64,000 nt of DNA from positions 2,003,706 through 2,067,705 of the forward strand of contig OZ244725.1 of assembly GCA_965219305.1 (NCBI GenBank), in the 5' to 3' direction. This DNA comes from Pyrinomonadaceae bacterium. GTDB lineage: Bacteria; Acidobacteriota; Blastocatellia; Pyrinomonadales; Pyrinomonadaceae. A model generated the notes under the pieces. That model made no database searches, was not told the DNA's origin, and was given only the letters and a program-made list of their open reading frames with translations. Below are positions 32,464-43,855 of this stretch, piece after piece (the stretch's first letter is position 1; the number at the start of each line of letters is the position of its first letter). The position numbers were made by a program, and so were the translations under genes.

Positions 32464-32506
32464 ATTTTTTTAATGCTAATCGTTATAAACGAATGAATTT
32501 ATTTTA

Positions 32507-32649
32507 GCCGCGGATTTCGCGGAAAACGCGGATTAAATTAAAATCAAATCAATTTAAGTATAAAATTTTTCTTAAAATCCGCGTCATCCGCGTCATCCGC
32601 GGCTAAAATATCTTCTCTTTTTCGTGTTCTTTTCGTGTATGTTCGTGGC
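32507..32649. repeat. CGCGGAT-family palindromic element (32507-32603) followed by a solo CACGAA-family arm (32611-32649)
   Basis: The element is gccgcggatttcgcggaaaacgcggat … atccgcgtcatccgcgtcatccgcggc. It is followed by ttcgtgttcttttcgtgtatgttcgtggc. Confidence 0.85.
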
Positions 32650-32655
32650 TAAAAA

Positions 32656-33565: not shown

Positions 33566-33643
33566 GCCCGCGAATAACGCAAATCTTCATTGATAATTTC
33601 TGATTTTATTTTCAATTCGTGTTCTTTCGTGTTATTCGTGGGC
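33566..33643. repeat. modular palindromic element (CGCGAAT / CACGAAT words)
   Basis: gcccgcgaataacgc … gtgttattcgtgggc. The arm differences are G/A transitions. Confidence 0.75.
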
Positions 33644-36949: not shown

Positions 36950-37134
36950 GCCACGAACAAACACGAAATGGACACGAACAAAAGAAATTTAGCCACAGAT
37001 GGACATAGATAAAAACCGGATAAAACCAAATTAGATTTATCTTCCTCATCTCCTAAAAATCTGTGTATATCTGTGTTCATCCGTGGTTAAATATTCTTCT
37101 CTTTTTTCGTGTTCTTTTCGTGTCTGTTCGTGGC
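36950..37134. repeat. nested palindromic element: outer CACGAA-family arms enclosing an inner CACAGAT-family element (36992-37087)
   Basis: Outer arms: gccacgaacaaacacgaaatggacacgaac … ttcgtgttcttttcgtgtctgttcgtggc. Inner arms: gccacagatggacatagataaaaaccggat … atctgtgtatatctgtgttcatccgtggt. Confidence 0.9.
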
Positions 37135-37919
37135 TAATCTCCTAATTTTTCACCCAAAACAACCTTTCGCATCTTCCGCAATTGATGCAGCCAACGGTCG
37201 TAATTCTCAGCTTTGTTGACAATATATTCACCGACTTCAACGTGCGGCAGAATCAAGAATTTTTCTTCATCCAGAGTTCTCACAACCGTCTCCGCACATT
37301 CTTCAACCGTGATCGAATCGGGAATCAAAAACGAATTGTTTCCATACTTAGCATCTTCGATCAAACGCGTCCGAACGCCTTGCGGACACAGACACGAAAC
37401 GTAAATTTTGTCGCCGAATTCAATCGCAAAACTCTCCGCCATCGCCACCGCCGCGTGTTTCGTCACCGAATACGGAGCCGACAAAGGATGCGTTAAAAGT
37501 CCCGCCGCCGAAGCCGTAATCATAAATCCGCCGCCGCCGTTTTCGATCATCTGCGGAAAAATCGCCCGCGCCAGATAAACGTGCGACAAAACATTGACTT
37601 TGTAAACCAAATCCCAAATCTTGTCCGAAACTTCCAGCGACCCTTCCGCACCGCCGATGCCCGCATTCGACGCGACAAAATCAATCCGCCCGCATTCGTC
37701 TAAAATTCCTTTGACGACCGTTTTACAATTTTCTTCGTCCGCGACGTTTAATTTAACTGCTTTCCCATTCACCGATTCCGCAACTTTTTCCGCATTTTCA
37801 AATTCCAGATCGGCAACAAAAATCTTCGCCGCGCCTTCCGCGTGAAACCGCTCGCACAAAGCCTTCCCAATCCCGTTCGCACTACCCGTGACGAGAATTA
37901 TTTTGTCTTTTAGATTCAT
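37134..37919 (-). CDS. SDR family oxidoreductase
   Basis: The start is set at MNLKDKIILVTGSANGIG. The track N-terminal extension [11 protein letters not shown] is translation of the repeat arm. The stop TAG lies at the repeat terminus. Confidence 0.85.
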   Translation of the reverse strand: MNLKDKIILVTGSANGIGKALCERFHAEGAAKIFVADLEFENAEKVAESVNGKAVKLNVADEENCKTVVKGILDECGRIDFVASNAGIGGAEGSLEVSDKIWDLVYKVNVLSHVYLARAIFPQMIENGGGGFMITASAAGLLTHPLSAPYSVTKHAAVAMAESFAIEFGDKIYVSCLCPQGVRTRLIEDAKYGNNSFLIPDSITVEECAETVVRTLDEEKFLILPHVEVGEYIVNKAENYDRWLHQLRKMRKVVLGEKLGD

Positions 37920-37927
37920 AATTTTTT

Positions 37928-38119
37928 GCCACGAACAAACACGAAATTTCACGAAACAGAAAAATTAGCCACAGATTCACTCAGATGAACACGAATGAAA
38001 ACCGGATGTAATTATTTCAAAAATCTGTCCCTTATCTTTCTTAATCTGTGTCTATCTGTGTAAATCTGTGGCTAAACTTCTTCGTTCTTTTCCGTGTATT
38101 TTTTGTGTTCGTTCGTGGC
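37928..38119. repeat. nested palindromic element (outer CACGAA arms; inner CACAGAT element 37968-38072)
   Basis: gccacgaacaaacacgaaatttcacgaa … [gccacagattcactcagatgaacacgaat … atctgtgtctatctgtgtaaatctgtggc] … gtgttcgttcgtggc. Confidence 0.9.
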
Positions 38120-39078
38120 TAATTTCCCACCGTCAACACGACTTTGCCCGTCGTTTTTCTGCCTTCAATAGCTTCGTGCGCTTCTTTCACATTTTCTAAA
38201 GGAAACTCCGTCACTTGAATTTTCAAACGTCCCGCGCCTAAATGTTCGAGTAATTCTTTCGTAAATTTGATACGATTTTCGACCGATTCGTTCATTAGCC
38301 AATAACCGCGAATCGTGTGATTTTTGTGCATCAAACTCAAGACCGAAACTTTGAAATCTTCACCCGAAGCCGAGCCGTAAACCCACATCGTGCCGTGTTT
38401 TGCCAGCACTTTCAGATTTTTCGCCACGATGTCGCCGCCGACCATTTCGATCAGCCAGTCAACGCCTTTGCCGTCGGTCGCTTTTAATACTTCGTCCGTC
38501 CAATCGTCTTCCGAATAATTGATCGCAAAATCCGCGCCGAGATCGGCGACCATCTGCAATTTCGCCTCGCTCGAAGCCGTGCCGATGACCTTCAAACCTT
38601 TCTGTTTCGCAAGTTGCACGAGCAAAGTCCCGACGCCGCCCGCCGCTGCGTGAATCAAAATCGTTTGCCCTGATTTCGTCTGGTTCAAAAGCCCGAGCGC
38701 GGTCAAGCCTTGCACAAGCAGCGCATTTGATTCGCCAAAACCGAGTTCGTCGGGAATCGGCATCGTCAGCGCGGCTTTCGCCGTCGCGTATTCGGCATAA
38801 CCGCCGCTCGAAGTCGTCGCCAAAACGCGCTGTCCGACTTTCAAATTCGAGACATTTTCGCCCAAAATTTCAATCGTCCCCGCCGCTTCATAACCGAGCG
38901 TCAGCGGCAATTCCGGCTGCGTCAAATAATTGCCCTCACGCATCATCGTGTCGGCATAATTAATTCCCGCCGCCGCGACTTTGATCAAAACCTCGTCCGC
39001 CTTCGGAGCCGGTTTTTCGATTTCCTCAAGCGACAATTTATCCGTTCCGCCAAGTTCATTTAATCTGATTGCTTTCAT
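38119..39078 (-). CDS. MDR-family NADPH:quinone oxidoreductase / zinc-type alcohol dehydrogenase-like
   Basis: 319 aa with …GINYADTMMREG.Y… and AAAGGVG nucleotide-binding motif. Confidence 0.9.
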   Translation of the reverse strand: MKAIRLNELGGTDKLSLEEIEKPAPKADEVLIKVAAAGINYADTMMREGNYLTQPELPLTLGYEAAGTIEILGENVSNLKVGQRVLATTSSGGYAEYATAKAALTMPIPDELGFGESNALLVQGLTALGLLNQTKSGQTILIHAAAGGVGTLLVQLAKQKGLKVIGTASSEAKLQMVADLGADFAINYSEDDWTDEVLKATDGKGVDWLIEMVGGDIVAKNLKVLAKHGTMWVYGSASGEDFKVSVLSLMHKNHTIRGYWLMNESVENRIKFTKELLEHLGAGRLKIQVTEFPLENVKEAHEAIEGRKTTGKVVLTVGN

Positions 39079-40892: not shown

Positions 40893-41087
40893 GCCACGAA
40901 TAAACACGAAAAATTTTAAGAAGTTTTAGCCACAGATTTTCACAGATTCATACGGATAAAATACAGATAAATTCAAATAAATAACTTTAAAATCTGTCTT
41001 ATCCTGCTTCAAAAATCTGTGTTTATCTGTGTTCATCTGTGGCTAATTTTTCTTTTTTTTTCGTGCTTTTTCGTGTCTGTTCGTGGC
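40893..41087. repeat. nested palindromic element (outer CACGAA arms; inner CACAGAT element 40929-41043)
   Basis: gccacgaataaacacgaaaa … [gccacagattttcacagattcatacggat … atctgtgtttatctgtgttcatctgtggc] … ttcgtgctttttcgtgtctgttcgtggc. Confidence 0.9.
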
Positions 41088-42112
41088 TAACTTCCTTTCG
41101 CTGTCGCAACATTTTCGTTAAAAAGTTCTGCGACGATTTCATAAGAACGCAGACGTTTTTCCTGATCGAAAACCATCGCGTTAACCATAATTTCGTCCGC
41201 TTTTGATTCTTCCAGAAACGCTTCCAATTTCCGTTTGACCGTTTCCTTGCTTCCGATGATCGAACCGCCCGTGCGCGAATTTACCAGAGTTTTTTCCTGC
41301 GCGTTCCAGATCGTGTTCATATCTTCGACCGGCGGCGGGATTTTGCCCGGTCTGCCGCGCACCAGATTTAGAAAAGACTGATACTGCGAAGTCGCTAAAA
41401 ATTCGGCTTCTTCGTCGGTTTCCGCCGCGATCACATTCAAACAAACCATCGCGTGCGGCTTTTGCAAATCGTCCGAAGGCTGAAAAGTTTTCCGGTAAAG
41501 TTCCAGAGACGGCAAAGTATGTTCGGGTGAAAAATGCGCCGCGAATGCGAACGGCAAACCCAAAACTCCGGCAAGATGCGCCGAAAAACCGCTCGAACTC
41601 AAAAGCCAGATCGGAACATTCAAACCCGCGCCCGGAACCGCCTGAACCTTTTGATTTGCCACCGTTTCGCGGAAAAAGAATCGCAATTCTTCAAGCTGTT
41701 CGGGAAATTCTTCGCCGTCATTGTTCAAACTCCGACGCAACGCCAATGTCGCCGGACGATCAGTTCCGGGAGCGCGTCCCAAACCGAGATCAATTCGATT
41801 CGGATAAAGCGATTCGAGCGTCCCGAACTGCTCGGCGATCACAATCGGCGCGTGATTCGACAACATAATTCCGCCCGAACCGACGCGGATCGTCGAAGTA
41901 TTTCCCGCGACAAACCCGATCACCACCGAAGTCGCCGCGCTCGCAATGCCGACCATATTGTGATGCTCGGCAAGCCAAAATCTCTGATAACCCAAACTTT
42001 CAGCCCGCTGCGCCAAACTCAAAGTCCGCTTAAACGCATCGCTCACATTTTCGCCTTCAAAAACGGGCGATAAATCTAAAACTGAAAATGGAATTTTTGT
42101 AATATTGCTCAT
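41087..42112 (-). CDS. LLM-class (luciferase-like) flavin-dependent oxidoreductase
   Basis: The start is set at [16 protein letters not shown]…. …[12 protein letters not shown]… is typical of the YhbW-like group. The stop TAG is at the repeat terminus. Confidence 0.85.
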
Positions 42113-42130
42113 AATTTCCCCTTGTTTTTT

Positions 42131-42472
42131 GCCACGAACAAACACGAAAGTTCACGAAAGTACAAGAAAGACTTTAAATAAAAAAGTTTTTATTCTGTTG
42201 CTTCAATTTCTGTTTCAAGAACATAAATATCGCCACCTTTATCTGAATCCAATTCAGCCAAATAAGTTATTGGTTCAAGTGAAATCAATGAAATTATACT
42301 TGCTTGATTTCCTGAGTAATCACCTTTAACAATTTGAATGCAATCGTTGTATCCGAATTTTACACCCTCGAGTTGCTCAAGTTCATACCAAAGTTTATTT
42401 GCTTCATCTAAATCCATAAATAGTAAAAAATTTCCTTATTCTTTTTGTGTCCTTTTCGTGTCTGTTCGTGGC
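42131..42472. repeat. CACGAA-family arm pair enclosing a 75-aa ORF
   Basis: The left arm is gccacgaacaaacacgaaagttcacgaaag (42131-). The right arm is gtgtccttttcgtgtctgttcgtggc (-42472). Confidence 0.8.
42190..42417 (-). CDS. hypothetical acidic 75-aa protein located inside a palindromic element
   Basis: ORF only. No motif recognised. AT-rich. Confidence 0.45.
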   Translation of the reverse strand: MDLDEANKLWYELEQLEGVKFGYNDCIQIVKGDYSGNQASIISLISLEPITYLAELDSDKGGDIYVLETEIEATE

Positions 42473-42480
42473 TAAATTCC

Positions 42481-43569
42481 TTACGCCGATTTTGCCTTTC
42501 GCAGATCAATTGCGCGCCCGTATTGTTTCGGCACATATCCCAAATCTTTACCCAATTCCTTCGCCGCCGTGAACGGAAAATACGGTTCGCGCAAAAATTC
42601 CCGCGCCATCAAAATCGCGTCGGCTTCGCCGTTTTGCAAAATTTCTTCGGCTTGTTTTGCGTCCGTAATCATTCCGACCGCGCCCGTCGGAATTTCAGCT
42701 TGTTTGCGAATTTCCGCCGCGAAAGAAACCTGATAATTCGGTGCGACGGGAATCTTCACGTCCGGCACATTTCCGCCCGTCGAAACGTCAATCAGGTCAA
42801 TTCCGATCTTTTTGAGTTCCTTGCAAAACTCGATTGACTGCGCTAAATCCCAACCCTTTTCTGTCCAATCGGTCGCCGAAATGCGAACGAAAACCGGAAG
42901 ATTTTCCGGCACGGTTTCGCGCACTTTTTTTGCAACTTCCAAAGGAAAACGCATCCGATTTTCCAGACTTCCGCCGTATTCGTCGTCGCGTTTGTTGGAA
43001 AGCGGCGATAAAAATTCGTGAAATAAATAACCGTGCGCGGCGTGAATTTCAATCACTTCAAAACCTGCATTTAACGCAAATTTCGTCGCCGCGACAAAAT
43101 CGTTTGTCGATTTTTCAATGTCGTCTTTCGACATTTCGCGCGGCAACGGATAATCGTCCGCAAACTTTTCCGCCGTCGGCGCGACCGTTTCCCAACCGCC
43201 GTTTTCGATCTCGACTTCTTTCCCACCGTTCCAAGGTTCTGCTGTTGAAGCTTTTCGTCCGGCGTGCGCGAGCTGAATTCCCGCAATTGCGCCGTATTCC
43301 TTGATAAATTTCGTGATTCTCTTATAACTTTCGGCGTGCGCGTCCGACCAAATTCCAGCGTCTGACGGAGAAATTCTGCCTTTGGGCGAAACGGCGGTCG
43401 CTTCCTGAATAATCAAACCCGCGCCGCCGACCGCGCGGCTTCCAAGATGAACGAGATGCCAATCCGTCGGCATTCCTTCCTCGCTCGAATATTGACACAT
43501 CGGCGAAACCCAAATTCGGTTGCGAAAATCGATTTCTCTTAATTTATAACTTTCAAATAATTTGCTCAT
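42481..43569 (-). CDS. Old Yellow Enzyme family NADPH dehydrogenase (YqjM/NamA-like)
   Basis: 362 aa with …SPMCQY…, …QL.HAGRK…, …FEVIEIHAAHGYL..EFLSP…. Confidence 0.9.
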   Translation of the reverse strand: MSKLFESYKLREIDFRNRIWVSPMCQYSSEEGMPTDWHLVHLGSRAVGGAGLIIQEATAVSPKGRISPSDAGIWSDAHAESYKRITKFIKEYGAIAGIQLAHAGRKASTAEPWNGGKEVEIENGGWETVAPTAEKFADDYPLPREMSKDDIEKSTNDFVAATKFALNAGFEVIEIHAAHGYLFHEFLSPLSNKRDDEYGGSLENRMRFPLEVAKKVRETVPENLPVFVRISATDWTEKGWDLAQSIEFCKELKKIGIDLIDVSTGGNVPDVKIPVAPNYQVSFAAEIRKQAEIPTGAVGMITDAKQAEEILQNGEADAILMAREFLREPYFPFTAAKELGKDLGYVPKQYGRAIDLRKAKSA

Positions 43570-43586: not shown

Positions 43587-43823
43587 CTACTGATTTTTTA
43601 TTTCGCCATCATCCAAAATGGCTTCGACCGGACAACACATCATTGCTTCTCTGCACTTTTTTTCTTCTTCTGGTGTTTCAGGTTGCTTCGCAAAATATAC
43701 GCCAAAATCTTCCGTGTCAGGTTTTATATTGTCAGGCGCGTAATATATACAAGCCTCACTGCAAGTGCAGACATCATAATCAATGTAGTATTTGCCTTTT
43801 ACATTCAAAGGATGAATTTTCAT
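43587..43823 (-). CDS. small ferredoxin
   Basis: 78 aa with CTCSEAC…AP and a C-terminal CCPVEAI cluster-binding pattern. Confidence 0.65.
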   Translation of the reverse strand: MKIHPLNVKGKYYIDYDVCTCSEACIYYAPDNIKPDTEDFGVYFAKQPETPEEEKKCREAMMCCPVEAILDDGEIKNQ

Positions 43824-43827
43824 TTTT

Positions 43828-43855
43828 TTCGCGTCCTTTCGCGTTTTTCGCGGGC
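43828..43855. repeat. solo arm of the palindromic element family
   Basis: ttcgcgtcctttcgcgtttttcgcgggc. It lies next to the stop of the gene at 43864. Confidence 0.55.

Follow-up and report, generated by a model that had tools for sequence, protein, structure and literature searches.

The 75-aa open reading frame (ORF) at positions 42190-42417, on the minus strand of the 64-kb stretch of DNA analysed here (the window), lies at the centre of a palindromic repeat element, between arms built of 10-nt units. We put at roughly 60% the probability that what is seen here is a nested palindrome of REPIN or MITE type that bears a gene and has partly decayed, the ORF travelling in it as a passenger, comparable to a mobile insertion cassette. 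The following course of events would account for it. Pyrinomonadaceae genomes contain multi-copy intergenic palindromes made of tandem 10-nt units of two types, an outer CACGAA and an inner CACAGAT type, and one variant of the family holds at its centre a small accessory gene, whose product is an acidic, standalone KOW-barrel protein. The ORF would be older than its arms, having become enclosed in the nested element within the Pyrinomonadales, and copies of the whole unit, arms included, would then have been placed at several intergenic sites. Once inserted, the gene would not need the arms, which would erode while purifying selection kept the ORF. The window copy would be such an eroded one, with both inner arms lost and the outer arms kept.

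The ORF and its two neighbours are all encoded on the minus strand, and the arms are described in the same direction. Upstream lies an NADH:flavin oxidoreductase of the OYE family (PF00724, 42481..43569), whose stop codon, together with the motif GGAATTTA, precedes the 5' outer arm (42446..42476, minus strand GCCACGAACAGACACGAAAAGGACACAAAAAG); this arm consists of three 10-nt CACGAA-type units, the third of them degenerate. The spacer leading from it to the start codon (42418..42445) is the site of the inner CACAGAT arm in the related loci L016, L017, L007 and L022. In the window this inner arm is decayed or deleted (AATAAGGAAATTTTTTACTATTT), and the spacer contains an AGGA about 15 nt 5' of the ATG. 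Past the stop codon, a second spacer (42171..42189) marks the site of the inner right arm, here almost wholly decayed, and is followed by the 3' outer arm (42127..42170), with three CACGAA/TTCGTG units at 10-nt spacing and the end GTTCGTGGC. An A-run and the ribosome-binding site of a luciferase-like monooxygenase gene (LLM, PF00296, 41087..42112, starting at 42112) come next. Simple scans of 41900-42700 found neither a promoter nor a terminator, and there was no Rfam match in the window.

An inverted-repeat search of the window pairs 42127-42149 with 42454-42476 (23 nt, 91% complementary, 304 nt between the arms), and a repeat search finds three CACGAA units at exact 10-nt spacing in 42133-42170. 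The two-unit family motif CACGAANNNNCACGAA occurs 15 times in the 64 kb against 0.89 expected, a count reached by 0 of 100 shuffles. Both the inverted-repeat search and this excess over shuffles bear out the initial annotation, which had placed CACGAA-type arms around the ORF: arms of the GCCACGAAC... type do bracket it, although the right arm starts at 42447 and not at 42446 as annotated, one base off. The same annotation had described an acidic protein encoded by an AT-rich ORF at 42190-42417 (pI 4.05 and GC 0.32 by our calculation) and had put this ORF in the loop position, which is where the three complete empty elements of the window hold their inner arms and loop.

About seven elements of the repeat family are present in the window, all of them intergenic. 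One empty nested element, with outer CACGAA arms, inner CACAGAT arms and a short loop, lies between LLM and peroxiredoxin (40893..41089, minus strand), and two more of the same family are found at 37928..38121 and 36950..37136, also on the minus strand. The inner CACAGAT arms of the empty elements are 10-nt tandem units as well, the loop is AT-rich, and predicted folding of the nested empty elements gives -70 to -83 kcal/mol. Outer-only and inner-only forms also occur, in the window and in related contigs, and so do solo arms. One of these is a CGCGAA variant (GCCCGCGAAAAACGCGAAAGGACGCGAAAAAA, 43824..43855, minus strand) directly upstream of a ferredoxin-like ORF at 43587-43823, which has no partner arm downstream; a further solo arm lies at 32619-32652. 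Element 40893-41089 supplies the end of a gene, since the LLM stop codon TAG falls in its terminal TTAGCC. This element is present in L009 and absent in L006, where the LLM-peroxiredoxin gap is 34 nt; the family is presence/absence polymorphic between relatives. When the filled site of the window (40893-41089) is set against the empty site of L006, between strongly diverged flanks, no direct repeat is seen at the ends. In run X1, from the metagenome holding this genome, arm bins are 90-200x deeper than ORF bins, a ratio that includes related strains and so gives no per-genome count; by this measure the arms, unlike the ORF, are multi-copy. We found nothing relevant in the published literature on Pyrinomonadaceae palindromic repeats, and this nested repeat family of Acidobacteriota is apparently undescribed.

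The complete form of the gene-bearing unit is found in related Pyrinomonadales contigs, in the order outer arm, inner CACAGAT arm, ORF, inner arm, outer arm. This full nested layout would, by comparison of the copies, be the ancestral one. Between hemY and hemB, a full nested unit surrounds the ORF in L022, a single 2-kb contig. Between hemE and hemN, the ORF lies within full outer and inner arms on both sides in L007 and L008, while in L004/L005 the outer left arm is lost. Between hemB and hemL (L020/L021), an inner left arm is followed by the ORF and an Imm32-like gene. At the OYE/MFS-ORF-LLM locus, to which the window copy belongs, both outer arms are present in L016 and L017, together with a full inner left arm, itself three CACAGAT units long; in L014/L015, as in the window, the outer pair stands alone, and in L006 and L009 there are only decayed arm vestiges. 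In total, the order left arm, ORF, right arm recurs in more than 10 independent contigs at 3-4 loci, and a metagenome scan yielded two further partial loci only. All comparison sequences come from metagenome assemblies, but most contexts turned up repeatedly in independent assemblies, an argument against chimeric joins at repeats.

In the alignment, the copies at all four sites form one homologous unit with the same arm-ORF junction (GATAAACACAG followed by ATGGATTT), and wherever arms are present the ORF starts at the ATG in the third inner unit. The haem copies have, in addition, a fourth inner right unit directly after the stop codon. At two haem sites the arms have common private variants along with this fourth right unit (TTAAGACAGAT), and the arm identity is 0.86-0.92 among ORF-bearing haem copies versus 0.65-0.88 to empty elements, including the empty one on L007's own contig. 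Arm variants at these two sites track the ORF lineage. Since the arms at the LLM locus resemble ordinary empty elements, shared ancestry of arms and ORF is established between the haem sites only. The nested arms around the ORF in L007/L008 and L022, the outer and inner arms on the upstream side in L016/L017 and the identical junction lend support to two readings already offered by the initial annotation, namely that the element carries the gene as cargo and that the gene was captured in, or inserted into, the loop.

Six or more syntenic copies differ in their patterns of arm loss. Arm-free homologues at a syntenic position, which the initial annotation regarded as the sign of two solo arms beside a resident gene, were not found, as L006 and L009 keep decayed vestiges. 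Its question whether homologues are always arm-flanked receives a negative answer: recognisable arms are absent in more divergent homologues, found in Pyrinomonadaceae, Chloracidobacterium (L011), Ignavibacteriales (L023) and Leptospira plasmids and including L018 (hemB-ORF-hemL), L001 (PP2C-ORF-pectinesterase) and L024. In L018 the ORF is absent from the hemY-hemB junction, and an empty inner element is found there.

By comparison with its homologues, the ORF (228 nt, ATG start) is a real, conserved gene under purifying selection, because these homologues have 74-75 aa, dN/dS is low and the predicted fold is confident. All eight close homologues (59-86% identity) are within this length range, and pairwise dN/dS among ORF homologues is 0.08-0.40. 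Homologues form 48 clusters among 1.84 billion representatives, and a family profile search retrieved 97 proteins. No homologue was found in the phage collection, and among plasmids they occur only in Leptospira accessory regions. The GC3 of the ORF is 0.18 in the window and 0.18-0.36 across the Pyrinomonadales loci, versus 0.49-0.60 for the neighbouring genes, a typical look of accessory DNA.

The protein has 17 D+E against 4 K+R, and its AlphaFold2 model (pLDDT 90.2) has an N-terminal helix followed by a five-stranded, SH3-like barrel. The top Foldseek matches are NusG/Spt5 KOW, uL24 and eL27, with TM-scores of 0.6-0.69, and also standalone phage KOW proteins. The family profile matches the Spt5 KOW repeats in the PDB (E 8.4e-5), and Pfam KOW (PF00467) matches weakly in 14 of 41 family members (best E 2.9e-4), whereas the window protein itself has no Pfam match. 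The fold is thus confidently predicted as a standalone, very acidic KOW/SH3-like barrel. With the proteins named above it would share the five-stranded barrel and the G-x-x-G KOW motif; it differs from them in its lack of an NGN domain, its strong acidity and its own N-terminal helix. The initial annotation's view that the protein has no recognisable motif does not stand, the KOW-type barrel being visible by profiles or structure only. Pfam, NCBIfam, PADLOC and PHROGs gave only weak KOW-type matches and no functional family, and domain fusions in longer family members were uninformative or spurious. The acidity would argue against simple nucleic-acid binding.

Some members of the KOW family adjoin immunity or toxin-antitoxin genes (Imm32-like, HicA, RHH-PIN) or occupy plasmid accessory regions, as in L020:1096-1347, L024:4591-4985 and L027, the Leptospira plasmid Laicp. 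Such neighbourhoods hint at a possible role of the acidic barrel as an immunity- or antitoxin-like binder. Toxin-antitoxin modules inserted in the same haem clusters have no flanking arms. The haem cluster holds 4 of the 7 Pyrinomonadales contexts of the KOW gene (hemE-hemN, hemY-hemB, hemB-hemL and hemB-Imm32-hemL, including the copy without clear arms; L004, L007, L008, L018, L020 and L022), which could reflect a functional link or simply local movement.

The REPINs and RAYT systems ('REPtrons') of Pseudomonas and enterobacteria, for which HUH-type single-strand transposition has been proposed (PMC3116915, PMC3337134), are one of the two closest known systems. The window element resembles them in its hairpin, formed by two inverted repeats and a spacer, and in its many intergenic copies, polymorphic between relatives; in both a single-copy gene is flanked by repeats, and no target duplication is visible, here as far as the diverged flanks show. 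The arms described here differ in being tandem 10-nt units instead of a REP palindrome and in belonging to two nested families, and the enclosed gene encodes a 75-aa KOW barrel and not an HUH/Y1 transposase. MITEs with a passenger gene, or mobile insertion cassettes (MICs), such as the qnrS2 cassette of Aeromonas plasmids (PMC5444012), are the other. Like them, the unit is non-autonomous, with terminal inverted repeats, no transposase gene inside and a passenger gene, and it recurs at different sites, here at four junction types. However, MICs, of which MIC231 of Bacillus cereus is another, derive from a known IS with its terminal repeats and make target duplications, whereas here long repeat arrays able to form hairpins serve as arms, no duplication is visible, no parent IS is known, and the empty form is a tight palindrome and not an internally deleted IS.

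The BIMEs of E. coli and the NIMEs and Correia elements of Neisseria are mosaic intergenic repeats, and they resemble the present family as modular, combinatorial repeats between co-directional genes that can form mRNA stem-loops. We know of no description of a protein-coding gene in the middle of any of them. Integron cassettes share the small, promoterless, co-directional accessory ORFs with hairpin-forming recombination sites. An integron cassette, though, carries a single attC, at its 3' end, and needs both an integrase and an attI platform. Here the ORF is framed by complementary half-sites, and the sites are dispersed among operons, which in the loci examined are ordinary ones with no integrase nearby.

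Hairpin-forming intergenic repeats (REPs, REPINs, MITEs) are, as far as we are aware, usually regarded as gene-free, and the only genes we know of between such repeats are their transposases, or resistance genes in IS-derived cassettes. The nested family repeatedly holds a small, conserved, non-transposase gene at its exact centre, and at least one other small gene likewise. Relative to REPIN/RAYT systems and MICs, the distinguishing traits are arms of 10-nt units, two nested arm families, and an enclosed gene that is neither a transposase nor embedded in an IS-derived structure. If the unit moves, it would offer a simple route for spreading very small accessory genes into operons, and one reason why such genes get missed or misannotated. 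The filled, empty and decayed sites are a tractable set for understanding how palindromic repeats spread and die.

Neither a target-site duplication nor a cognate transposase was found in the window and the loci examined, so we infer the movement of the entire unit. It could be driven by a transposase acting in trans, probably HUH/RAYT-like, or else by ectopic recombination between the ~75-bp arms of resident elements; the absence of a visible target duplication fits HUH-type transposition and ectopic recombination equally well. The number of known sites is 3-4, three of them in one haem cluster, and part of the pattern could stem from paralogue loss or from local rearrangement. At every site the ORF points the same way as its neighbours, and the scan for sigma-70-like promoters found none; expression by read-through is therefore probable.

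A second small gene is found between arms. In L022 a Fer4_13 ferredoxin gene lies exactly between inner CACAGAT arms (L022:1573-1872), between hemB and hemL, its reading frame apparently interrupted near the 3' end. Its homologue in the window is the ferredoxin-like ORF on the minus strand with the solo CGCGAA-type arm, and at the AKR-OYE junction of L006 an empty outer-only element takes the place of the ferredoxin gene. The KOW ORF and the ferredoxin gene are the only arm-flanked genes seen in the window and the loci examined. Tentatively, and with a fairly low probability, the elements could form a transposase-free cassette system, in which short genes between arms are copied into the centres of other elements and shuffled among them as landing pads. 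Every element would offer the same ~75-bp left and right arms, and exchange would proceed by ectopic recombination or gene conversion, or would follow the uptake of DNA from relatives. The KOW and ferredoxin genes would in this way be shuffled among intergenic sites in operons, with expression by read-through.

We regard it as unlikely that the arms did not travel and that the small gene, itself mobile, entered the centres of existing empty palindromes independently and site-specifically, by a route that would be break repair at hairpin tips or microhomology at AGATGGA. Relatives have empty elements at the same junctions, the LLM-locus arms look like ordinary local elements, and the second small gene is likewise central in an element; furthermore, CACAGATGGA, a normal unit variant in empty elements, matches the ATGGA start of the ORF. 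On the other hand, identical junctions on both sides and private arm variants at two loci would require a very precise site specificity, and the ORF has no visible terminal repeats or recombination site of its own.

The passenger reading has the arms dispensable after insertion. They could instead be kept as a regulatory stem, a long-range RNA helix that controls translation of the ORF or transcript stability, with the start codon in the inner arm, an explanation that we consider rather improbable. In the predicted RNA folds the ORF is closed off by a helix of 35-69 bp, and in complete copies the start codon is predicted to be partly paired. Yet the arms of syntenic copies decay differently while the ORF stays conserved, and more divergent homologues have no arms. 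The fold energies of empty elements were compared between strands for a bias to the transcribed strand via G-U pairs, and no consistent preference was found, so a function at the RNA level is not indicated. Arm decay under continued selection on the ORF, together with this lack of strand preference, argues against an essential regulatory role.

The initial annotation also suggested an element-encoded function. The ORF-bearing copy might be the 'master' of the family, its product acting in trans on hundreds of empty copies as a RAYT does. KOW domains can bind nucleic acids or transcription machinery. The ORF appears single-copy and the arms multi-copy, and the ORF is flanked by repeats as RAYT genes are by REPINs (PMC3337134). 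We nevertheless find this very improbable for an acidic KOW barrel of 75 aa (pI 4.05) with no catalytic motif, encoded by a gene that is single-copy in the window and is kept while its arms decay. Its family is also found in Ignavibacteriales, Chloracidobacterium and Leptospira plasmids without such arms, and L018 has elements but no clear arms around its ORF. If the gene-bearing copy were the parent of the empty ones, remnants of the ORF would be expected in their loops; none was found in the empty elements, whose loops consist of further degenerate 10-nt units.

Chance, by which two unrelated solo arms flank a resident gene or a spurious ORF lies in an AT-rich loop, is refuted by recurrence and by the selection test in spite of the solo arms in the window (32619-32652, 43824-43855), given the same left-ORF-right order in independent contigs at several loci, the 97 detectable homologues with dN/dS no higher than 0.40 and the confident predicted fold.

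Some minor observations concern the locus and the family. Over window positions 41500-43100, contigs at least 85% similar to LLM/OYE are 3 to 70x deeper in runs X1-X4 than those over the ORF, and in runs X3 and X4 depth over the ORF is nil in most of the eight bins and low in two. ORF depth is below flank depth, and therefore related strains may lack the ORF here or carry a much diverged copy. The first 30 nt of the ORF (ATGGATTTAG ATGAAGCAAA TAAAC) keep to the 10-nt register of the arm and bear a loose resemblance to its units, which may be due to microhomology used in capture, or to chance.

The elements have a polarity, the same as that of the genes beside them. A stop codon and GGA(A/G)AT(T)TA precede the 5' end of the element, and at the 3' end (T)AAAAA is followed by the start of the next gene (window 42476-42485, 41089-41097, 37136-37150 and 38121-38135; loci L007, L016, L017 and L022). 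Unit variants with a CA to CG change (CACAGAT versus CGCGGAT, CACGAA versus CGCGAA) occur in the window at 32505-32652, 33566-33643 and 43824-43855. At 32505-32608 both arms have the same variant, that is, the arms co-vary, and at 33566-33643 the arms differ, CGCGAA-like on the left and CACGAA-like on the right.
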